In this document: in pieces, positions 9,150 to 20,824 of the stretch
Layout of the letters: each line of letters opens with the position of its first letter
Position numbering within the stretch: the stretch's first letter is position 1
Source: Candidatus Krumholzibacteriia bacterium
Lineage (GTDB): Bacteria > Krumholzibacteriota > Krumholzibacteriia > Krumholzibacteriales > Krumholzibacteriaceae
DNA: 64,000 nt
Assembly: GCA_023131975.1 (NCBI GenBank)
Contig: JAGLYV010000066.1
Coordinates: 1 to 64,000, forward strand
Direction: 5' to 3'
Program-made: the position numbers and the translations under genes
Notes under the pieces: model-generated
Told to the model about the DNA's origin: nothing
What the model saw: only the letters and a program-made list of their open reading frames with translations
The model's database searches: none

Positions 9150-9521
9150 CTATTCCGGAAAATCTTCTTCGATGATATTTTCTATCATCCGTTCATCCTC
9201 GTTCTGTTTGATAAGCGACAGGACATGGTCGAATTCTGTCTTCACATTATCTTCGAAACACTCGACCATATTCTTCGCCCGCTTGCCACTGTTGATCCTC
9301 GTGAATCTCAGCCGACGCAGAAGGGATTCATACGATTTATCGGAGGTGTAGGCCGACAGGGTGTACCTGGCGACAAACTCCCCGCACTCCGCACATTCGA
9401 TATAGACCCGGATCTTTTCGCCCTTGCAGAAATACATATTGTTTTTGGTCGACGTAGAGTCGCAGTTGGGGCAATGTTCCGTCCTGGCGCTTTCGCTCGA
9501 TGTGGTCCTGTCTTTTTCCAT
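9150..9521 (-). CDS. Small zinc-ribbon protein, function unknown.
   Basis: Two CxxC pairs (CPNCDS...CAECGEF). Sits directly upstream of and co-oriented with the GT39 gene. No recognisable family. Confidence 0.4.
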   Translation of the reverse strand: MEKDRTTSSESARTEHCPNCDSTSTKNNMYFCKGEKIRVYIECAECGEFVARYTLSAYTSDKSYESLLRRLRFTRINSGKRAKNMVECFEDNVKTEFDHVLSLIKQNEDERMIENIIEEDFPE

Positions 9522-9558: not shown

Positions 9559-10929
9559 TTAGAACAGGAAGTAAATGAACAAGGTTATAAACACTGTCGA
9601 AATGGCGGTGATTATCGAGCCGCCCTTTATCATATCGCTCACCTTGACGTAGCCAGAACCGTAGGCGATAGCGTTTGGCGGCGTGCTTATGGGAAGTATC
9701 ATGGCAGCTGAGGCGGCAATGGCGACCGTGACCGCGCTCGTCTCCGGAGCTACGGCCGCGATCCCTGTCACTATCGGCATCAACAGGTTGGCTGTCGCGC
9801 TGTTGGAAATAAAAGTAGTCATCACCGCAGCCGCGGTAGCGAAGAGCAGCAGTATGAGGAATATCTCCATTCCCGCGAACGGGATCAGGCCGACGATCCA
9901 GTCGGCGAGGCCGCTTTGTTTCATGGCCACTCCGAGGCTCATTCCGCCCCCGATGATAAAGAGGATCCCCCAGCCCATTTCCTTCAGGTCGTCGTCGCCG
10001 AGAAGGCCCAGTCCGAAAAATACGACAAGGGGGATGATCGCTACGATCGACGAAGGTATTCCATGGATACCTCCGGTCAGCCAGAGGAGGACGACGACGG
10101 CAAAGACTACAAGGATGAATATCGATTTGTGGTCCAGTCTTTCCTCGTCCGCCGGGATCGACATATTAATATTCTTTACCCCTGCCGGGAAGAGCCTGCA
10201 GAGCAGGACCCAGCACGTGGCGAGAAGTACTATTACGACCGGGATTCCCCGGAGCATCCAGCCGGCGAAAGACATTCCCCGGCCCATCTGTTCGAGGATG
10301 CCCATGGCTATCGCGTTTGGCGGTGTGCCTATGGGTGTTCCGATCCCCCCGATATTCGCCGCGAAAGGTATACCGAGAATGATCGCTTTTCTGAACGGTT
10401 CTTCATGCGGAAAGGACTTGATGACGGGAATGGCCACCGCGATCATCAGCGCGGTCGTAGCCGTATTGGACATCCACATGGAAAGAAAGGCCGTTGTGAC
10501 CATCATACCGAGAAGGACGCGAGATGGCCTTGTCCCGACGTGGCGGAGGATGGATCTCGATATCCTTTCGTCCAGGCCGTACCTTTTGACGGCGCTAGCC
10601 ATCACAAAGCCTCCGAGGAAGAGCAGGACGACCGACCCGAAGAACGGGGTCAGAAATATAGTGTAGCCGCTTTTATCCAGCCCCAGGGGACCGCCGTTTC
10701 TGCCGAGAAAGACTACTTCCAGGAAGACGATGATGAAAGATGTGACATAAAGCGGAAAAGGTTCGATTATCCAGAGAAGGGCAGCCGTAGTGAAGATCCC
10801 GAAGGTTATACGTCCCGCGTCGCTCAATCCGTCCGGGTGAATCAGTGTGACGGCGTATCCGGCAGAAAGAGCGATCGCTAGTATAACGATTGTTTTGATG
10901 TTTTTCGGAGTCAGGATCTCAAGATTCAT
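9559..10929 (-). CDS. DASS/SLC13-family anion:sodium symporter (CitT/ArsB-type permease superfamily).
   Basis: Polytopic membrane protein with the signature WMSNTATTALM and a duplicated hairpin region (SNSATANLLMPI). Start moved to the internal ATG at 10929 (MNLEIL...) because the longer ORF would overlap the PAP2 gene by 55 nt. Confidence 0.75.
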   Translation of the reverse strand: MNLEILTPKNIKTIVILAIALSAGYAVTLIHPDGLSDAGRITFGIFTTAALLWIIEPFPLYVTSFIIVFLEVVFLGRNGGPLGLDKSGYTIFLTPFFGSVVLLFLGGFVMASAVKRYGLDERISRSILRHVGTRPSRVLLGMMVTTAFLSMWMSNTATTALMIAVAIPVIKSFPHEEPFRKAIILGIPFAANIGGIGTPIGTPPNAIAMGILEQMGRGMSFAGWMLRGIPVVIVLLATCWVLLCRLFPAGVKNINMSIPADEERLDHKSIFILVVFAVVVLLWLTGGIHGIPSSIVAIIPLVVFFGLGLLGDDDLKEMGWGILFIIGGGMSLGVAMKQSGLADWIVGLIPFAGMEIFLILLLFATAAAVMTTFISNSATANLLMPIVTGIAAVAPETSAVTVAIAASAAMILPISTPPNAIAYGSGYVKVSDMIKGGSIITAISTVFITLFIYFLF

Positions 10930-11624
10930 TACCTCTCTCCTGGAGTCTTCGCCTGTTTTTTCCGGGCGGGGTGGTAGATCCATTTGAACGCGGTCCAGGC
11001 CAGGAAGGCCAGTGTGGTACCGATAGCCATTCCCGCAAGGACGTCGAGAGGCCAGTGGACGCCGATGTAGATCCGGGAATAGGAAACGGCAAATGCTACT
11101 ATCAGCAGGTATATAAGACTTTTCCGGTAGACCAGTCCGAGAAATACCATGGCTCCTGTCATGTTGGCCGCGTGGTTGGAAGGAAATGAGAATGATGATT
11201 TATAGCTTCGAACGACCTCCGCGGGTGTGGTTATCCACCCTTCGACGCCGTGCCAGAAGTGGACGTTGCCCAGGACTTCGCATGGTCTCATTCTTCCCAC
11301 AAGTGGTTTTATGAGCGAAGCGCAAAGCTGGTCCGATGCCGCGACGAGTGGGATCATCATGAAGGCTGCCCACCGGCCTTTTGCCTTACCGAAGATCACC
11401 AGTGCCACCCACACGATGACAAGGACGATCCTCCACTTTCTGAAGTCGGTTACTATGGGCATCAGGAAATCGAAGAATGGGTTTGCCGCTTTTCCGTTGA
11501 GGAGCCGGAAAGCGCCCAGGTCGGGCGCGGTGATGTCGTCCGTTTCCGCGGCTGACGCGAAAATCGGAAAAAATGTCATCATGACAAGTACGGCCGGAAT
11601 AAATATCAGTATTCTGAAATTCAT
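10929..11624 (-). CDS. PAP2-family membrane phosphatase (phosphatidic acid/undecaprenyl-PP phosphatase-like).
   Basis: Three PAP2 motifs: KPLVGRMRP (KxxxxxxRP), FPSNHA (PSGH-like), SRIYIGVHWPLDV (SRxxxxxHxxxD). Stop codon overlaps the start of the downstream transporter. Confidence 0.8.
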   Translation of the reverse strand: MNFRILIFIPAVLVMMTFFPIFASAAETDDITAPDLGAFRLLNGKAANPFFDFLMPIVTDFRKWRIVLVIVWVALVIFGKAKGRWAAFMMIPLVAASDQLCASLIKPLVGRMRPCEVLGNVHFWHGVEGWITTPAEVVRSYKSSFSFPSNHAANMTGAMVFLGLVYRKSLIYLLIVAFAVSYSRIYIGVHWPLDVLAGMAIGTTLAFLAWTAFKWIYHPARKKQAKTPGER

Positions 11625-11684: not shown

Positions 11685-12374
11685 TCAGTACGATCTGTTT
11701 TTTTCTGCGTGGGGCAACTCGACAAGCCTGCTCGATATTTCGAATCCGCCTACGACCGAATAGAGGGCAGAACCCCTGATCTCAAACGGCAGTTCGACGA
11801 GTCTCGGGGGTGAAGTGGCATTGAGATGGACGTCTTTCAGAAAATCCCCACTTTCCTGAATCGATTCAGGCAGGGTGGCGATGAATATGAAGTCCATCAG
11901 CTGAACGGCCTCCTCGGGATGAAGGGCGCACATGACGGGCCGCCCCGGGTCTTCGGCCCGTACGAGACGGAACGGGGGCTGTTTTCTGGTGAGCAGTTTC
12001 CCTATCTTCAGATACGCGAAGGTGTTGGTCGCCTGGAAGGCTGGGACGAAGATGCTGTATCTGTCGTGGCTTTCGATCCTGTCGAGCAGATAGTTCAGTT
12101 CGCTTCCCGGTAGGACCTCCCGGGCCTGACTGATCCCGTGTCTGAGCAGGTGTGAGTCGATCGGGATGATCCAGAATGGCAGAAGCAGGGTCTCGGTTTC
12201 GGAATCACCGGGAGCGGGAGATCTGAATACCTGCAGGGGCTCGAGGCCGGAGCCGGTAATGATCCAGTACCGGAAACAGGTCTCGCACTGGAAAGTGATA
12301 TAACGTCCCATTACGGGAAGCTCAGTGCCACAATGTCCGCATCTTAAATGCCTGACTATGAATTCTCCACTCAT
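11685..12374 (-). CDS. Zinc-ribbon protein (paralog family with the two upstream genes). Last gene of the SPFH/Zn-ribbon operon.
   Basis: N-terminal CxxC...CxxC (CGHCGTELPVMGRYITFQCETC) followed by an LPFWIIPID motif shared with the IPFWRMNGR/IPFVMIE motif of upstream paralogs. 1-nt intergenic gap to the upstream gene. Confidence 0.5.
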   Translation of the reverse strand: MSGEFIVRHLRCGHCGTELPVMGRYITFQCETCFRYWIITGSGLEPLQVFRSPAPGDSETETLLLPFWIIPIDSHLLRHGISQAREVLPGSELNYLLDRIESHDRYSIFVPAFQATNTFAYLKIGKLLTRKQPPFRLVRAEDPGRPVMCALHPEEAVQLMDFIFIATLPESIQESGDFLKDVHLNATSPPRLVELPFEIRGSALYSVVGGFEISSRLVELPHAEKNRSY

Positions 12375-12375
12375 A

Positions 12376-13437
12376 TCACAACTCCCCTCCGAACCATGTT
12401 TCCAGCCTGCCCTTCATCCATCTCAGGGGGGGGATGAATGCCCCGGTGTGAAAGGTATCGAAAATGTACAGTGCCGCCAGGGAGATAGCGATAAGAGGCG
12501 CCCAGGTAAAGGCCATGATCGCTGCCGCCGCGGGGACATAGAACATGCTCCTGAAATCTACATGTTTTCGTTTCGGATAATTGCCTCTGATGACTTTTCC
12601 GTCGTTTCCATCTACTGTGATCGAATAGATGATTCCCCTGTGACGGTACCGCATCATGTATATCGGATAGTAGTACAGCGAGAAGTCATTGTCGAAGATC
12701 CTGAACCTGCTTGCCCGGACGATCGATCCGCTTGGAGTGGTAAGACTCGACAGGTATTTGAACCCGTTTTTTTCGGCGATCTTTCGGGGTTTCATCGGCA
12801 GGGCTATATTCACTTTCTTTTTCAGGTCGTGATCGAATTTGTCCCAGTCGAGGCTGCGGGCCCTGAGTGATATGCCCTGAAGGCCCAGGTGCCGCATCGA
12901 GCAGGCGGGAGTCGACCAGTCTACATGTTTGAATACGAGCCTGGAGAATGGGGTCCTCTCCTCCACTGTTTTATAGTTGGTTTTTACGCCATGCGCGGAC
13001 GGCGTGAGGACCTCGACCTGTCTTCTTGTAACCTTTTCACCGCAGACCCAGCCGACCAGTCTGCCGTTCATCCGCCAGAATGGAATGTTTATCAGTTGTA
13101 TGTCGAGTATAGAGGCATGTCTGGCTTTTACGCGGCCATTGGTCTTTTCGCCGAGGTAATGAAGTGCTTCAAGCCGGGCCTTTCCGGCCGAGATCTTCGG
13201 CGGGAGATAGAACCCGCGGACGCCCATGGGGCGCGTGATGTAAAGAGCCGATCCGCAATATTGACACTTTATACTCTTTTCACCTTCATGGACCCTGATC
13301 GATCCTCCGCATTCAGGGCAGGTGACTCCGAATGTCTCGCTGGAGTGTTGCTCGGGAGCATCTCCTGAGCCTTCGTCGTGTGATTCGTATGTTCCGGTCG
13401 ATTCAAGGGTGTCGACGGCCCCGATCCCATCATTCAT
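12376..13437 (-). CDS. Zinc-ribbon protein with a C-terminal transmembrane anchor (paralog family).
   Basis: Acidic N-terminal tail, then CPECGGSIRVHEGEKSIKCQYCGS zinc ribbon, then ARLEALHYLGEK...INIPFWRMNGR, then a C-terminal TM (VPAAAAIMAFTWAPLIAISLAALYIF). Overlaps the upstream gene by 8 nt. Confidence 0.5.
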   Translation of the reverse strand: MNDGIGAVDTLESTGTYESHDEGSGDAPEQHSSETFGVTCPECGGSIRVHEGEKSIKCQYCGSALYITRPMGVRGFYLPPKISAGKARLEALHYLGEKTNGRVKARHASILDIQLINIPFWRMNGRLVGWVCGEKVTRRQVEVLTPSAHGVKTNYKTVEERTPFSRLVFKHVDWSTPACSMRHLGLQGISLRARSLDWDKFDHDLKKKVNIALPMKPRKIAEKNGFKYLSSLTTPSGSIVRASRFRIFDNDFSLYYYPIYMMRYRHRGIIYSITVDGNDGKVIRGNYPKRKHVDFRSMFYVPAAAAIMAFTWAPLIAISLAALYIFDTFHTGAFIPPLRWMKGRLETWFGGEL

Positions 13438-14131
13438 TTCCCATCACTCTTTCGCGGATGCTGAATATGGCGTACGCGATGGTCGAAACGATGATGATCA
13501 ATCCGATGCGGCTGCTCCATCCGCTCATGAAGCGTCCAGCCATCAGGAGTCCGGTGAAAATGGATCCCGCGGCGATCATGTTGGGGATGCTCAGTGGCGC
13601 GGGCATCCCGTGCGGAAGTCCTTTTGCCAGAACGAGCAGGCTCCCACCTATGACGAGAGCCCTGAATTTCCTTCCTACCGCCCGGTAACTTATCCTGTAC
13701 ACAGGCAGATGAAGGGTTTTGTGAGCGTCGGCCGGAGTCTCTTTGACAGGGTGAAACTTTTCATCTGAGGTAAGGGCCTCGTCGAAGAAAGAATAGTTCC
13801 CTGCCGGGGGAAAGGGAATGGGCATTGCCCATGACGGGGCGCCAGGGGCAGGCATCGTCTGCATCTTTCCCCTGTCATTTTCAATCATCACGAATGGGAT
13901 ATATGAAAACTCTATTTTCATGTCCTTGGGACGCGCCAGTTTTTTTTCTGTAAGCAGCGATCTCAGTGCTTCTCCAGCAACCTTGTCGTTACGCTCGTGG
14001 GGCAGGATCAGATGCTCCGGCCCGTCCTGTTTTTCGACAGCAAGCGACGAACCGCAATACTCGCAGAAGAGCATCTCCTGACCGGGATGGATCTTGTTTT
14101 CACCACCACAGAGGCTGCACTGGACATTCAT
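13430..14131 (-). CDS. Zinc-ribbon protein with two C-terminal TM helices (paralog family).
   Basis: CSLCGGENKIHPGQEMLFCEYCGS zinc ribbon; AGEALRSLLTEKK...YIPFVMIEN region alignable with 12376-13437; two C-terminal TM segments. 3-nt gap from the SPFH gene. Confidence 0.5.
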   Translation of the reverse strand: MNVQCSLCGGENKIHPGQEMLFCEYCGSSLAVEKQDGPEHLILPHERNDKVAGEALRSLLTEKKLARPKDMKIEFSYIPFVMIENDRGKMQTMPAPGAPSWAMPIPFPPAGNYSFFDEALTSDEKFHPVKETPADAHKTLHLPVYRISYRAVGRKFRALVIGGSLLVLAKGLPHGMPAPLSIPNMIAAGSIFTGLLMAGRFMSGWSSRIGLIIIVSTIAYAIFSIRERVMGNE

Positions 14132-14134
14132 CTA

Positions 14135-15277
14135 CTATTCTTCCACCTTTTCTCCGCAGTTCGTGCAGAATTTCGTGCCGTGCGGCAGGGTGGTGTCGCA
14201 ATGAGGGCAGGACAGTTCCGCCCCGAGCTTGTGGCCGCAGCCGCTGCAGAATTGTGCTTCCGTGGGGAGTTCTATCCCGCAATCGGGGCACTTGTTCATC
14301 GTGACGAGCTGTGTTCCGCAGTTCTGGCAGAATCTGGAATCGGCCATTACCTCGTTATGACATTTGTGGCACTGCAGGACTTCGACTGCTGTCCCACCGC
14401 CGCGCTGCGGTGTCATGACAGTCTGGGCGAGCATTCCCGGTATCATCATTCCGAGGCCTGCTCCCACACCTACACCCATTCCACCAGCGGCTGCCGCTCC
14501 CGCGCCGCCTCCGCCGCCACCGCTTGACGCGGCGTCGCCCATGGCCTTTGCCGCTTTGAATTTGAAGAAATCGTCGAGATTGCCGACCGCCTGAAGGCCG
14601 CTTCTCTCATCGATCATCTTCTGGACCTCTGGAGGGGGGGTGATCGAATTGATGAAGAAATCGGTCAGTTCCATGCCGTATTTCGAGAAGTCGTTGACAA
14701 GGCGCTCCTGCAGTTCGACAGCCAGTTCGTCGTAGAACTGGGGGAGCTCGAAGATCGAATCGAGTTTTTCACCGAAGAGATCGTTCATGCGGGCAACGAC
14801 TACGTCTCGAAGGTAGTCCCCGATCATCTGGCTCGTGTAGACGCCCTGCGTTCCGACTACGGAATTTATAAATAGCATCGGTTCTTTTATCTTGAACGTA
14901 TACACACCGAAGGCGCGAAGCCTTACCAGTCCGAGCTTACTGTCCTTGAACGCAACGGGATCTTTCGTTCCCCATTTCTGGTTCAGGAAAGTCTTCATGT
15001 TGGCGAAATAGACCTCTGCCCTGAAGGGGCTCTTGAATCCCCAGGGAAGGGCGAGGATCTTGGTGAGTATCGGGAGGTTTTTCGTCGTCAGTGTGTGGCG
15101 ACCCGCTCCAAAGAGGTCGAGTCCTTTTCCGTCTTTGAAAAAGACGCAGGCCTGATTGTCTCTGACGATCAGTTGTGCCCCCATCTTGATCTCGGCCGAT
15201 CCTTCGGGTGGTAACCTATGGACGATCTCTTCGCCTGTCTCGTCGAACCACTCAAGTACTTCCATGAACTGCGACAT
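14135..15277 (-). CDS. SPFH/Band-7 family protein (Band_7_1, COG4260-like) with three C-terminal zinc ribbons and a Gly/Ala-rich linker.
   Basis: SPFH core ([33 protein letters not shown]...), a poly-Gly/Ala linker, then CHKCHN...CQNCG, CPDCG...CSGCG and CPHCD...CTNCG. Start set at ATG 15277 (MSQFMEV), preceded by GGAGGAGAG. The longer ORF to 15388 or a start at 15298 are alternatives. Confidence 0.7.
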
Positions 15278-15830
15278 CTCTCCTCCATTCGCTATCATGT
15301 CTCTCAGTAATTTTCGATAGTATGCCAGGCAATAGTTGCCACCAGTCATGCAGCAATCATGGTGCCAAAGAGAAACATTCACAGTCATTTATCCGTAATA
15401 CCATCTGACAGGAAAGACGATCTGGCTGGTATGGTGTAACTATAATAATTTCACGGGGTTTGCCCCTGTGGCCAGCGATTTCCCGGTGAGACTGCGGTAT
15501 GGGTATGCATTTTGCTTGTATCTGCCCCTGCATGATTGAAGTCCTTTCCGGGGTAGATAAGCGGCAAGTATTCGTACAGCCGCTCAGGTTTTTAGCCATC
15601 GTAAGGAAGGGCGGTAATGATATTTTTCTTGCCATGATCTTGAGCGTGGGCAAGAATGTTCAGAAGTGACAGACGACATACAACACGTGCTGAAGAGACA
15701 CGTAGCAGGATTTTGAAACAAAAAGGTAAAGGAGAGCAAAGGAGGTGGTCGATCGCCTGGGCCCTGGAGGCCGTAATTGGAACTGGAAAGTGAATCAGTT
15801 TTGTTATTCAGTTTTTCAAGGAGATATCTA

Positions 15831-16524: not shown

Positions 16525-16745
16525 TATGACAGGTGCCAGGCCGATCGGATCAGCGGGCGGGTACAGGCCAGCAGGTGGCCTGTCCGATATTCTTGCCTTG
16601 TAAACCTCCATGTAAATGACGATAATCTGTTATCTCAGGGTCGACGTGCCCGAAACTTGCATCGAGTCCCTTTCGGTCAGAAAGGATCGGATTGACTGGA
16701 GATAACAGCAGCGCTGGGAAAAACAGAAATGATGAAAGTTCAGGT

Positions 16746-17880
16746 ATGGACAAGAGGATCCGCGTCTGCGTGATGATGCCGAAATTCCACATCGGCGGCG
16801 CCGAGGTGCAGGTGATGGGTCTTCTCAGGAATATCGACAGGTCCAGATTTGCCGTTCATCTCTGCCTCTTCGGCCACGGAGTCAGTGAAATGGAAGAGGA
16901 AGCATCCAGCCTGGTAGAAGAGATATATTACCTTGATTTCAGGTGGAGATACCTGCCTGTCAGTTTCCTGAAGCTTGTAAAATATCTGCAGGACGGCAGA
17001 TTCGATGTGCTTCACGCCCACCTTGCCTTTGCCGACCTGATAGGAAGGATCGTGGCCTGGATGGCTGGAGTGCCGATCAGGATAACGACCGAGCATGGCA
17101 AGGGACTGTGGAAATCCGGATTCCAGGTGATGATCGAGCAGGCGATGAACAGGATCACCGACATGCGGATCTGCGTCAGCCGGGATATATTGAGGATCAG
17201 GAAAGAGCGTGAACATACGGACGGTTCGAAGCTGGCCTATATTCCGAACGCGGTGGATACATCTTCCTTTGGTGGGGCCCGCAGGAGTAAAGCAGATATC
17301 ATGAAGGAGTTCGGGTGGGATCCCGCCGCTCCTCTCGTACTCTCGGTAGGGAGAGTGGTAGAGGCCAAGAACTATCCTCTGCTGGTCCGGGCAGTCTCGG
17401 ATCTATCCAGAAAAATACCTGAAGTAAAATGCCTGATCGCCGGTGACGGAAGATGTCGCGGCGAGGTAGAGACAGCAATAACAGAGGACGGACTCGAAAA
17501 TACGGTCCGACTGGCCGGATCGAGAAACGACATCGCCGACCTGCTTGGGGCGGCCGATCTTTTTGTATTATCCTCCGACCGGGAGGGATTGCCGGTGACT
17601 CTTCTTGAGGCGATGGCTTCAGAGACACCGATAGTCTCGACCGACGTAGGAGGCATCTCCGAGGCGGTCAGCGACCGCGAGAGCGCGTTGCTGGTTCCGG
17701 GCCGGGGATATCAGCGCGTTGGCCGCAGCGATGGAAGATGTGCTTTCCGATCCCGATCTGGCTGCCCGGTTGACGGAAAAGGCACGCGAAATCGTAAAGG
17801 ACAGGTTCAGCATCCTGTCGACTTCGATGGAAGTCCAGGATATATACGAAAAACTGTACAGGGAGAAGCGGCAGATATGA
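16746..17880 (+). pseudogene. GT4 (group 1) glycosyltransferase with an apparent single-base frameshift near 17700-17715. The C-terminal 57 codons are in another frame; this may be an assembly error.
   Basis: Frame A reads a GT4 N-terminal domain (MDKRIRVCVMMPKFHIGGAEVQV...) and catalytic domain (EGLPVTLLEAMASETPIVSTDVGGISE...ALLVPGRG). The conserved continuation DISALAAAMEDVLSDPDLAARLTEKAREIVKDRFS...YREKRQI-stop is found in the +1 frame, ending at TGA 17878-17880. The shift falls in the run ccgggccgggg. The track ORF 16692-19085 reads through into the next gene. Confidence 0.55.
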
Positions 17881-19085
17881 CCAAGCCTGAAGCAGTCCCG
17901 GTCGTCATGTATCACGGAGTCGCGCCGGACAGGCCCGAATGGATCTGGAATCATCTTGTCACGCCTGTCGATGTGTTCGATGGGCAGATGAAAGCTCTGA
18001 AAGAAAACGGCTGGAACACGATCACGCTCAAACAGCTCTATTCACATATGAAAGATGGCGACCCACTGCCCAAAAAACCGGTCGTATTGACATTCGACGA
18101 CGGCTACCTGGACAACTGGGTATATGCATATCCTATCCTGAAGAAATATGGTCATCATGCCGTGATCTGGATGACTACCGATTTTATTGATCCATGCCCT
18201 GATCCCCGTCCCAGGATGGACGATGCCGGTATAGATGGTAGTCATGAAAAGGGCCTGGAGAGTCTGGGTTTTCTCTCGTTTGCCGAGATGAGGGTGATGG
18301 AGGAATCGGGCCATGCCGAGATCCAGAGCCATGCCTTGACACATACATGGTATTTCTCGGGAGAGAAGATACTCGATTATCACAGACCTGCCGGAAAAGA
18401 TGGATATGATCCGCTTCCCTGGCTTTCATGGAACGCGGTACCTGAGAAAAAATACGAGTATATGTCGAGAGATCTCAGCGGAGACCTGCCCTTCGGTTCT
18501 CCTGTATACAAGCACGAAAGAGCGTTGGTGGTGAGAAAGTATTTCGACGATGAAAATCTGGCGAGACGCCTTGCCGCGCATGTAGCCGCGCATGGAGGTG
18601 CCGGCTTTTTCGACATGCCCGTATGGAGGGGCGAGCTGGATGAACTGGTGACGAATTACGGATCTCCGGCAGGCAGGTACGAGACCGATGAGGAATATGA
18701 GGACAGGGTAAGACATGAACTTGCCGGATCCCGCAGTATCCTTTCCCGTGGACTCGGCCGTGATATAGATTTTCTCTGCTGGCCTGGAGGAGGGTTCAAC
18801 GATACGACCTTGAGGATCGCCTCGGAAGAGGGTTGCCTGGCTACCACCACAGACTATCATACGCCGGGAAGGAAGAATGTCCACGGAGAAAGGCCCGACA
18901 GGATAAACCGAATAGGATGCGCTTCGCCATGGATGTGGAGGGGTAATGTATCTATCAAAAATACCGACCCCGGTTTTTTCATCGCCTCGCTGGACGGATT
19001 CACGGGAAAAAAAAGGTCGATTTGGAAAATGCGCTGTTATAAGATTAAATACCTGATCAGATATTTTTTGACTGGAAACAAATAA
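17877..19085 (+). CDS. Polysaccharide deacetylase (CE4/NodB homology domain).
   Basis: ATG 17877 overlaps the GT4 stop (ATGA). NodB motifs TFDDGY, HAVIWMTTDF, SHALTH. About 400 aa, typical of CE4 proteins with extra domains. Confidence 0.75.
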   Translation: MTKPEAVPVVMYHGVAPDRPEWIWNHLVTPVDVFDGQMKALKENGWNTITLKQLYSHMKDGDPLPKKPVVLTFDDGYLDNWVYAYPILKKYGHHAVIWMTTDFIDPCPDPRPRMDDAGIDGSHEKGLESLGFLSFAEMRVMEESGHAEIQSHALTHTWYFSGEKILDYHRPAGKDGYDPLPWLSWNAVPEKKYEYMSRDLSGDLPFGSPVYKHERALVVRKYFDDENLARRLAAHVAAHGGAGFFDMPVWRGELDELVTNYGSPAGRYETDEEYEDRVRHELAGSRSILSRGLGRDIDFLCWPGGGFNDTTLRIASEEGCLATTTDYHTPGRKNVHGERPDRINRIGCASPWMWRGNVSIKNTDPGFFIASLDGFTGKKRSIWKMRCYKIKYLIRYFLTGNK

Positions 19086-19102: not shown

Positions 19103-20824
19103 ATGGTATTGCCGCTTTCACCATCACTGGTAAGAAATGTCATACATCCCGTATACAGGGGGCTCAGAGGCGACAAGCTGCTCACGACCCTCAGCGAGCT
19201 TGAAAAGAACCAGTGGCTTTCGCCTGAGGAGATCGAGGATATCCAGTGGGGGCGCATGAAAGGTTTTCTCAAGGAGATATCGACGCACGTTCCATATTAC
19301 CGTGAGCTTTTCAATGAACTGGGCCTGAAGGCGGAAGACATCCAGAAGCCGACGGATTTCCTGGAGCTTCCCCTGCTGGACAAGCACTTGATCAGGCAGG
19401 AAGCGAAGAGGTTGATCACCGAGGATCCGATGAGACGGGGATACAGGTCAAGTACCGGAGGATCTACCGGCGAGCCCCTTTATTTTTCTGTCGATCTGTC
19501 CGCGGGGCCCGTCCGGAGGGCCAACACGGCGCGTAGTTACCGGATGGCAGGGATCGATATCGGCGACAAACAGGCTTTCGTCTGGGGTTTTCCCTTTGAC
19601 ATTCCCCTGAAGGAAAGAATGGCCAGCGCGATAAAGAACTATTTCAACAACATCACATATCTTTCATCCTTCAATATGTCCGAAAACGCGATGCTCGATT
19701 ATGCCAACAAGTTGAAAAGGTACAAGCCCGACCTCGTCATAGGCTATCCCTCCGCGGTGACGCTGTTCGCGGAATTCATCAAGAGCAAGAATATAAGCGG
19801 TATCAAGCCAAAGTCGGTAATCTCCAGTGGTGAGAAGATCTATCCCCAGCAGAGGGAGTTGCTCGAGGAAGTCTTCGGGTGCAGGGTGTTCGACCGCTAT
19901 GGAAGCAACGAGTTTGCAAATGTCGCCCATGAATGTGACCAGCACAAGGGGCTGCATCTCTTCACCGATCTACTCTATTTTGAGATCTTGCGTGAGAACG
20001 GCAGGCCTGCCGCGCCGGGCGAAGTCGGAGAGATCGTGATCACCGATTTTCTGAATCTCTACATGCCATTCGTTCGTTACAGAACGGGAGATATGGCGAT
20101 TCCCACGGACAGAGTCTGTGAATGTGGCCGTGGGCTTCCTCTCATAGAGAGGATCGAGGGGCGGACTTTTGACAATATCCTCACACCTGACGGGCGTTCG
20201 ATCGGCGGGTATTTCTGGACCTATCTCTCCAGGGTCGTTCCAGGTATAAAGCAGTTCCAGGTCGAACAGAAACAGAGAAGCAACATCACTTTCCGGATAG
20301 TCCGCGGCCCCGACTGGAACGATGGAAATGAAGCCCGGCTCATCAGCGAGATCCGCGAGAACATGGGCGAGGCTGTCAATATCAAGATCGACAAGGTGGA
20401 TGAGATTCCTCTGTCGCCGGCCGGAAAGTTCAGGTTCATCGTTTCGAAGGTGGAGGAACGGATGGTCGTCAAATCGAAGGTGCACAAGGCCAATGTGACG
20501 GCAGCCGATCCTTCCAGGGTCGATTGTATAATCGTGGACGAGGATATCCTGGAGCTGAGTAACATCATCCCCGGCGAGCATGTCCTGATCGTGGACAATA
20601 CGAACGGCGCGAGGATCGAGACGTTCGTCATCAAGGGAGAGAAGGGCAGCGGAGAACTCATCTCCTGTGGCGCGGTCGCGCAGCATATCCACGATGGCGA
20701 TGAGATCATTATCATGGCCTTTACCTGGTCCGAGGAGACTCACGGACAGTTCAGCAATATTCTGATAGATGAGAATAACAAGTTCGTCCGCTATCTTACC
20801 GAGAAGGCGGGAGACAAGATATGA
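19103..20824 (+). CDS. CapK/PaaK/F390-synthetase-like adenylate-forming enzyme fused to a C-terminal PanD-like (aspartate decarboxylase fold) domain that appears catalytically degenerate.
   Basis: Residues 1-450 have CapK/PaaK features (NQWLSPEEIEDIQWGRMK, SSTGGSTGEP AMP-binding motif, YGSNE, RYRTGD). Residues 454-573 (nt 20462-20824) align to PanD (KSKVHKANVT..D..IVDEDILE...NGARIETFVIKGEKGSGE..CGAVAQHIHDGDEIIIMAF) but lack the Gly-Ser self-cleavage site (RVDCII instead of GSITI) and carry Phe in place of the catalytic Tyr (ETFVI versus ETYVI). Confidence 0.75.
   Translation: MVLPLSPSLVRNVIHPVYRGLRGDKLLTTLSELEKNQWLSPEEIEDIQWGRMKGFLKEISTHVPYYRELFNELGLKAEDIQKPTDFLELPLLDKHLIRQEAKRLITEDPMRRGYRSSTGGSTGEPLYFSVDLSAGPVRRANTARSYRMAGIDIGDKQAFVWGFPFDIPLKERMASAIKNYFNNITYLSSFNMSENAMLDYANKLKRYKPDLVIGYPSAVTLFAEFIKSKNISGIKPKSVISSGEKIYPQQRELLEEVFGCRVFDRYGSNEFANVAHECDQHKGLHLFTDLLYFEILRENGRPAAPGEVGEIVITDFLNLYMPFVRYRTGDMAIPTDRVCECGRGLPLIERIEGRTFDNILTPDGRSIGGYFWTYLSRVVPGIKQFQVEQKQRSNITFRIVRGPDWNDGNEARLISEIRENMGEAVNIKIDKVDEIPLSPAGKFRFIVSKVEERMVVKSKVHKANVTAADPSRVDCIIVDEDILELSNIIPGEHVLIVDNTNGARIETFVIKGEKGSGELISCGAVAQHIHDGDEIIIMAFTWSEETHGQFSNILIDENNKFVRYLTEKAGDKI

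Follow-up and report, generated by a model that had tools for sequence, protein, structure and literature searches.

SPFH proteins are universal membrane organizers, and to our knowledge the PspA-linked operon of Bacillus subtilis is the only one that has been studied for their soluble Band_7_1 branch. Here we analyze a cluster of four consecutive minus-strand genes, designated A, B, C and D in operon order, that occupies positions 11685-15277 of a stretch of 64,000 nucleotides from a Candidatus Krumholzibacteriia bacterium (GenBank assembly GCA_023131975.1, contig JAGLYV010000066.1, positions 1 to 64,000 of the forward strand; this whole stretch is hereafter referred to as the window) and that encodes one Band_7_1 protein followed by three zinc-ribbon proteins. 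The four genes probably constitute a conserved relative of the B. subtilis YdjG/YdjI (SamG/SamI) membrane-stress module, with neither PspA nor the TPM-domain protein, and in this relative an SPFH oligomer would be held at the membrane by B and C.

In B. subtilis, YdjI is a soluble protein whose membrane localization requires YdjG and YdjH, and removal of ydjG or of ydjH causes both YdjI and PspA to lose their membrane foci; in B. subtilis two-hybrid assays, YdjH makes contact with both YdjI and PspA (Scholz et al. 2021, PMC8581546). YdjG combines zinc ribbons, a YpeB-related domain and a transmembrane (TM) segment (Ravi et al. 2024, PMC11237479). The ydjGHI genes have been renamed samGHI in a recent preprint, according to which the SamGHI phenotypes are independent of PspA (Baur et al. 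2026, bioRxiv 10.64898/2026.02.06.704340).

Results

The four genes form a tightly coupled operon

The cluster comprises the following open reading frames (ORFs).

14135-15277, minus strand: gene A, 380 amino acids, ATG at 15277; soluble SPFH protein of the Band_7_1/COG4260 type, YdjI/SamI-like
13430-14131, minus strand: gene B, 233 amino acids; short YdjG-like paralogue
12376-13437, minus strand: gene C, 353 amino acids; full-size YdjG-family protein
11685-12374, minus strand: gene D, 229 amino acids; soluble zinc-ribbon protein

An earlier note on this DNA, made from the sequence alone, had described four consecutive minus-strand genes joined by short gaps or an 8-nt overlap, and the ORF map bears this out: A and B lie 3 nt apart, B and C overlap by 8 nt, and a single nucleotide separates C from D. 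The region 11685-15277 is a real operon of four tightly coupled genes. For gene A, the start of the longest ORF (position 15388, 417 amino acids) was rejected and the ATG at 15277 was preferred because a GGAGGAG Shine-Dalgarno sequence sits just 5' of this ATG, because a separate gene call on an identical Logan contig agrees with it, and because the alignments of orthologues begin there.

Protein A is a soluble SPFH protein homologous to YdjI

Three features can be distinguished within gene A.

14594-15202, minus strand: SPFH (Band_7_1) domain, residues 26-228 (best stretch of the Pfam match)
14402-14530, minus strand: Gly/Ala-rich low-complexity linker, about residues 250-292 (from the translation)
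14144-14380, minus strand: three tandem CxxC...CxxC zinc ribbons at the C terminus, residues 300-378 (Pfam models)

Residues 26-228 correspond to Pfam Band_7_1 (PF13421; E 2.3e-62; 210.8 bits, the gathering cut-off being 24; profile positions 7-209 of 211), and the DZR, Zn_Ribbon_1 and Zn_ribbon_3 models match three stretches each, so that the product of the first gene is indeed the Band_7_1 protein with a Gly/Ala linker and three ribbons that had been read from the translation. The linker is kept in the Geobacter orthologue and in the alignment of A homologues, and the number of C-terminal ribbons in A orthologues ranges from one to three. By hydropathy, nothing in A other than the Gly/Ala linker rises above the TM threshold. 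The SPFH domain, the linker, the C-terminal ribbons and the absent TM segment together place A among the Band_7_1/COG4260-type SPFH proteins. Comparison with B. subtilis YdjI gave a full-length alignment that includes the linker and one ribbon (26% identity, E 4e-31). When the A profile was searched against PDB sequences, no solved-structure match was obtained at E<=0.01.

B and C are paralogues of the YdjG type, and D shares their N-terminal module

Proteins B, C and D carry one N-terminal CxxC...CxxC ribbon each (Cys-5/8/23/26 in B, Cys-40/43/58/61 in C and Cys-12/15/30/33 in D), which with the three of A gives the total of six zinc ribbons counted previously. None of the three proteins could be assigned to a family of Pfam, NCBIfam or PADLOC, the only matches being sub-threshold ones to generic zinc-ribbon models over the N-terminal ribbon of about 25 residues. 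Nevertheless, B and C are similar to one another from the ribbon to the anchor, both by BLASTP (2e-9) and by hhalign with alignments of their orthologues (98.5% probability, E 1.9e-15, 213 columns), and as judged from these alignments they are full-length paralogues. Protein C contains a central insert of about 120 residues relative to B, and since the distant relatives of the family are C-sized, B looks like a shortened form.

The layout of B consists of a zinc ribbon (residues 3-29), an 'IPFV' strand, an 'LPVYRISYR' hairpin and, at the C terminus (about residues 180-227), two hydrophobic segments. In C, a disordered N terminus is followed by a zinc ribbon (residues 38-64), two helix-plus-sheet units, an anchor (residues 298-329) and an amphipathic tail. 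The predicted model of C (mean predicted local distance difference test score 74.7) has the same order, in which the sheets of the two units are antiparallel, a very long β-hairpin (residues 109-177) belongs to the first unit, and a hydrophobic helix (residues 295-331) precedes a short amphipathic helix; this model resembles YpeB/PepSY domains. A search of PDB sequences with the C-family profile yielded nothing useful. The C-terminal hydrophobic segments of B and C, detected by hydropathy, are kept in all 38 B orthologues and all 40 C orthologues, in agreement with the earlier proposal that two of the three zinc-ribbon proteins end in TM anchors, and no hydrophobic segment was found in D by the same criterion.

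Protein D showed no detectable similarity to B or to C by BLASTP, and its match to the broad C-family profile covers the ribbon-to-PFW head only (74 columns, 96.8% probability, E 3e-10). Therefore, the three zinc-ribbon proteins, which had all been proposed to be paralogous, are so in the case of D for the N-terminal module only, and the proposal stands over the full length for B and C. This ribbon-to-'LPFW' head, which spans residues 8-72 of D and is common to B, C and YdjG, is followed in D by a C-terminal α/β domain of its own ('FVPAF', 'ATLPESIQ', 'ELPF'), which was modeled confidently and has no structural neighbor in the PDB. B, C and D show no evident conserved catalytic motif, and between the Krumholzibacteriota and Geobacter D proteins only structural residues are conserved, which fits adaptor roles.

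Around residue 78, D lacks a variable segment of about 50 residues that is present in its closest orthologues (P0122 and P0123, 280 amino acids). This gap resembles a naturally occurring in-frame indel of a variable loop, and a few other orthologues are likewise without the segment.

To compare the cluster with YdjG, a YdjG sequence served as search seed only, and the comparisons themselves were made with the B. subtilis database proteins returned at 99% identity; the identity of the YdjG entry (P0340) was verified by the gene order PspA / P0340 / TPM / Band_7_1. The broad C-family profile aligned with the YdjG family (hhalign 98.1%, E 1.2e-13, 257 columns) over the stretch from the second ribbon of YdjG to its TM segment, and B is tied to the same family through its homology to C. 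The YdjG architecture of a ribbon, a YpeB-related α/β domain and a C-terminal TM segment is found in both B and C. Together with the similarity of A to YdjI, these data support the earlier choice of ydjG-ydjH-ydjI as the nearest analogue. Protein D was considered as an equivalent of YdjH and rejected, given that hhalign returned a probability of 0.4% for this pair. B, C and D have no Pfam match to TPM.

No PspA_IM30 gene was found within about 8 kb of the cluster in the Logan copy of the window, in three Krumholzibacteriota loci or in Geobacter, and no TPM gene in the cluster or in the Pfam-labeled flanks of orthologous loci. The earlier note had likewise seen no pspA.

The cluster is conserved across at least two phyla

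To determine the distribution of the cluster, one genome per GTDB species was scanned, a search that covers the species with a C homologue. The scan recovered 42 loci, all of them from Krumholzibacteriota, and the closest C homologues (45-90% identity) come from metagenome-assembled genomes (MAGs) of Candidatus Krumholzibacteriota. In these loci, BLASTP against the locus ORFs revealed A, B, C and D in one order and on one strand wherever the contig was long enough, with identities of 70-88% (A), 31-58% (B), 44-62% (C) and 29-53% (D). The cluster lies at one syntenic position among housekeeping genes in all 42 species loci. Its neighbors include glycosyltransferase genes, a gene for a polysaccharide deacetylase, one for a PMT_2-type transferase and one for an outer-membrane β-barrel protein.

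Relatives were also detected at greater distance. The C profile matched 1734 clusters at E<=1e-3, of which 242 reached E<=1e-10, among 1.84 billion representative proteins, and many of these relatives are full-length proteins of 320-380 amino acids. One of them is the hypothetical protein AAR34411.1 of Geobacter sulfurreducens, which belongs to a cluster of matching order, located downstream of ruvCAB, that encodes a Band_7_1+DZR protein of 358 amino acids and then proteins of 239, 325 and 217 amino acids. The Geobacter orthologues were recognized for A with 54% identity (E 5e-146), for B with E 1e-18, for C with E 3e-32 and for D by hhalign (98.8%, E 1e-16). An A-B-C-D cluster is also present on another unrelated contig (L133), and on contig L132 gene A is followed by extra small membrane proteins and then by B and C. 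Taken together, these sequence comparisons indicate that the cluster is not peculiar to the Krumholzibacteriia genome and is an old module spread over at least two phyla.

Two further observations concern individual loci. Of the three genes that separate the SPFH gene from the B-C pair in L132 (L132:2466-4227), one encodes an 86-residue protein with two TM segments, another a YbjN-like protein and another a multi-TM protein of 347 residues without a Pfam family. An ORF of 852 amino acids (L041:5230-7788) was considered as a B-C-D triple fusion and rejected: its translation is garbled at the TM segments and at the YYP hairpin, and it was therefore taken as a frameshift artifact of long-read MAG assembly.

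A fused C-D protein accompanies A in distant loci

Metagenome contigs were scanned with the conserved A alignment, which yielded 80 loci, and these were then searched with hidden Markov models of A-D. Of these loci, 46 include 1.5 kb or more of sequence downstream of A, and in all 46 genes of the B/C/D type adjoin A. Separate B and C genes are present in 13 of the 46, including all the loci whose A is at least 70% identical and, in addition, L086 and L089 (A 55-59%). In 30 others, A is directly followed by a single protein of 410-490 amino acids (for example L074:7221-8636, L093:7138-8553 and L107:7073-8335), the N-terminal half of which corresponds to the C model in its ribbon, PFW strand and YYP hairpin and the C-terminal half of which matches the D model (second ribbon, LPFW, 'FYVPAF' and C-terminal domain); in the remaining 3 such a protein has a significant match to D only. 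The fusion proteins contain no hydrophobic anchor. An automated clustering of the genes around distant A loci, in a set contaminated by antisense ORFs, gave the fusion gene as the sole recurrent neighbor. Since C and D occur fused in one protein, these results suggest, by the Rosetta-stone argument, that C and D act together or interact.

Sequences flanking the operon

Two features border the operon within the window.

15278-15776 (about 500 nt), no strand: upstream intergenic region, presumed promoter region of the operon (from the ORF map)
10929-11624, minus strand: gene for a PAP2-family lipid phosphatase 60 nt downstream of D, assigned by a Pfam PAP2 match of the gene call

The intergenic region is common to A and to the divergent outer-membrane β-barrel gene (OMP_b-brl), and a convincing sigma-70 consensus was sought upstream of A and not found. 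On the other side, a weak terminator-like hairpin (11672-11657) lies between D and the PAP2 gene. In roughly a dozen Krumholzibacteriota loci the PAP2 gene starts within about 150 nt of D, the distance being 7 nt in L003 and L027; several other Krumholzibacteriota loci do not have it nearby, and the Geobacter cluster lacks it, a phasin gene and UbiB following D there. The PAP2 gene is a possible fifth, lineage-specific gene of the transcription unit. In other distant loci the genes beyond the cluster are GyrI-like or phospholipase D (PLD) genes, or there is no recurrent neighbor. The base composition of the region is ordinary.

Three further genes of the window are recorded here.

19103-20824, plus strand: protein of 573 amino acids with an AMP-binding/CapK-like region and a C-terminal aspartate-decarboxylase (PanD-like) domain
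16692-19085, plus strand: ORF of 797 amino acids, a GT4 glycosyltransferase fused to a polysaccharide deacetylase domain
9150-9521, minus strand: protein of 123 amino acids with a CxxC...CxxC motif (HCPNCDS ... CAECGEF), for which Pfam gave no family at E<=1e-3

A CapK_C + Asp_decarbox fusion like the first one is also found near the cluster in the Krumholzibacteriota loci L002-L004. The two domains of the second are encoded by separate adjacent genes in related loci, and the third is placed between an SLC13-type transporter gene and PMT_2/TPR genes.

Discussion

A probable PspA-less relative of the YdjG/YdjI module

According to the reading that we favor and consider probable, A would be a cytoplasmic SPFH protein without a membrane segment of its own, and B and C would assemble into a tail-anchored hetero-oligomer that serves as a receptor on the cytoplasmic side of the inner membrane, with their zinc ribbons and PepSY/YpeB-like α/β domains in the cytoplasm and their C-terminal anchors in the inner membrane. 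This B-C receptor would recruit and position the A oligomer, D would act as an adaptor bridging to the C-type subunit, and the whole assembly would organize or monitor a patch of membrane, as a scaffold or as an envelope-stress sensor, without the need of an adjacent PspA. The topology, the physical interactions, the oligomeric state and the physiological role proposed here are carried over from the experiments in B. subtilis (PMC8581546; bioRxiv 10.64898/2026.02.06.704340). The membrane-associated stress or scaffolding system that the earlier note had suggested is in this way supported by homology, from which we infer its function.

Several observations weigh against this proposal. The relationship between C and YdjG is real but remote and depends on the broad profile, because a narrow profile built from Krumholzibacteriota sequences only gave a probability of 48% with the YdjG alignment. 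The cluster lacks a homologue of YdjH, even though YdjH is the subunit that contacts YdjI and PspA, and the tblastn search with B. subtilis PspA, which found nothing in the 64-kb window, was a single query and speaks for the window alone, as does the lack of pspA in the Pfam-labeled flanks for those flanks. Tethering through B and C cannot be universal in the wider family, as the C-D fusion is anchorless. Finally, the B-C-D triplet at L134:4189-7775 has no SPFH gene next to it; the gene after this triplet belongs to the phospholipase D family.

Alternative explanations

The alternative that survives best, although we consider it unlikely, is that the complex is a client-specific SPFH cage which controls a membrane enzyme in the manner of HflK/C-FtsH, the client in this lineage being the downstream PAP2 phosphatase or the surrounding envelope-polysaccharide machinery. 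SPFH proteins commonly scaffold membrane enzymes, the PAP2 gene starts close to D in the window and in the dozen or so loci mentioned above, and the glycosyltransferase, polysaccharide deacetylase, PMT_2-type transferase and outer-membrane β-barrel genes that flank the cluster would offer further candidates. However, the linkage to PAP2 is lineage-specific, given the different genes that follow D in Geobacter and in the other distant loci and the several Krumholzibacteriota loci in which PAP2 is not nearby, and the weak terminator-like hairpin between D and PAP2 also argues against a common function.

A role in anti-phage or abortive-infection defence, in which the SPFH and zinc-ribbon proteins would sense infection and damage the membrane, is very improbable; the earlier note had already ranked it as the less likely reading. 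SPFH and zinc-ribbon modules do recur in conflict systems, an IMG/VR contig (L130:6001-7625) encodes a Band_7_1 and zinc-ribbon protein 30% identical to A, and C has very weak PADLOC matches (E 1e-3 to 1e-2), which are confined to its ribbon. However, the families of PADLOC-DB v2 match none of A, B and D, so that the cluster fits no defence-system model of that collection, and no nuclease, protease, NTPase or other effector domain was found in the cluster proteins. In tblastn searches, C had 0 matches in 72,556 plasmid records and 0 in 50,697 phage records, and of 326 candidate stretches in viral contigs only one was confirmed. The constant syntenic position in the 42 species loci, with A 70-88% identical, is the pattern of a core gene and not of a patchy island, and the base composition is not anomalous. 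A defence island or mobile element was therefore rejected on the basis of synteny, conservation and the lack of plasmid and phage matches. The housekeeping envelope neighbors, the ordinary base composition and the lack of C matches in the plasmid and phage records support vertical inheritance of the cluster, in favor of its being a relative of the YdjG/YdjI module.

In the viral contig L130, which is the sole match in the viral collection, the A-like gene is followed by a gene for a 150-residue protein that matches B in the zinc ribbon only.

That B, C and D are nucleic-acid-binding or transcription-related proteins with a regulatory link to the SPFH protein is hardly credible, because the homologue labels ('TFIIB-type zinc ribbon', 'RPC12/RpoP', 'PriA-like'), the Pfam matches (Zn_ribbon_PriA, Zn_Ribbon_TF and similar) and the DNA-binding ribbon mentioned for YdjG (Popp et al. 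2022) that speak for it are set against matches that all score under the curated cut-offs and are limited to the ribbon of about 25 residues, against 200-300 other residues that form PepSY-like α/β domains plus membrane anchors, and against the failure to find a helix-turn-helix or other DNA-binding domain in these proteins.

A possible general form of the SPFH/YdjG pairing

The cluster shows that the pairing of an SPFH protein with YdjG-type proteins reaches well past the Firmicutes, without PspA or TPM and with a conserved extra subunit. A bolder and rather more doubtful extension, which we put forward tentatively, is that the A-B-C-D form and the fused A/C-D form together represent a widespread, phylum-spanning and PspA-independent SPFH machine, with a D fold unseen among solved structures, and that this machine is the more general and possibly ancestral form, of which the PspA-SamGHI system of the Firmicutes would be a specialized offshoot. 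Were this so, it would constitute a distinct class of bacterial membrane-surveillance complex. We found no description of the four-gene form or of its fused variant in the literature. The component list is now defined as four proteins, or two in the fused form, and the natural C-D fusion predicts a contact between the C and D subunits. G. sulfurreducens provides a genetically tractable host in which to ask how a soluble SPFH protein reaches the membrane and what is sensed there.

Comparison with known systems

The cluster resembles the SPFH-NfeD operons (qmcA-ybbJ of Escherichia coli; yqeZ-floA and yuaF-floT of B. subtilis) in that an SPFH scaffold is translationally coupled with one or more small membrane-anchored partners. 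It differs from them in the nature of the partners, which are zinc-ribbon/PepSY-like and not NfeD proteins, no Pfam match to NfeD having been obtained for B, C or D at E<=1. Protein A also differs from the stomatin and flotillin types by lacking their N-terminal membrane anchor or hairpin and by belonging to the Band_7_1 subfamily. With the HflK/HflC-FtsH cage the cluster shares an SPFH assembly at the inner membrane and a pair of paralogous subunits. However, in HflK/HflC it is the SPFH proteins that make up the paralogous pair, with a protease as the client, whereas here the paralogues would be non-SPFH anchors and the conserved core encodes neither a protease nor any other client.

The closest system remains pspA-ydjGHI, an operon marked by envelope-stress induction (sigma-W regulon), and the cluster departs from it in several respects. 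The SPFH gene comes first here and last in the B. subtilis operon, and neither pspA nor a gene for a TPM-domain YdjH adjoins the cluster in the window. Instead of YdjG with its two ribbons there are two diverged YdjG-type paralogues, the short B and the long C, with one ribbon each, and there is an extra soluble subunit, D, whose domain matches no known fold. An anchorless two-gene variant with a fused C-D protein exists for the A-B-C-D system, and the hosts are Gram-negative (Krumholzibacteriota and Geobacter). Common to both systems are a soluble Band_7_1 SPFH protein that ends in one or more C-terminal zinc ribbons and the tight coupling of all the genes in a single operon.

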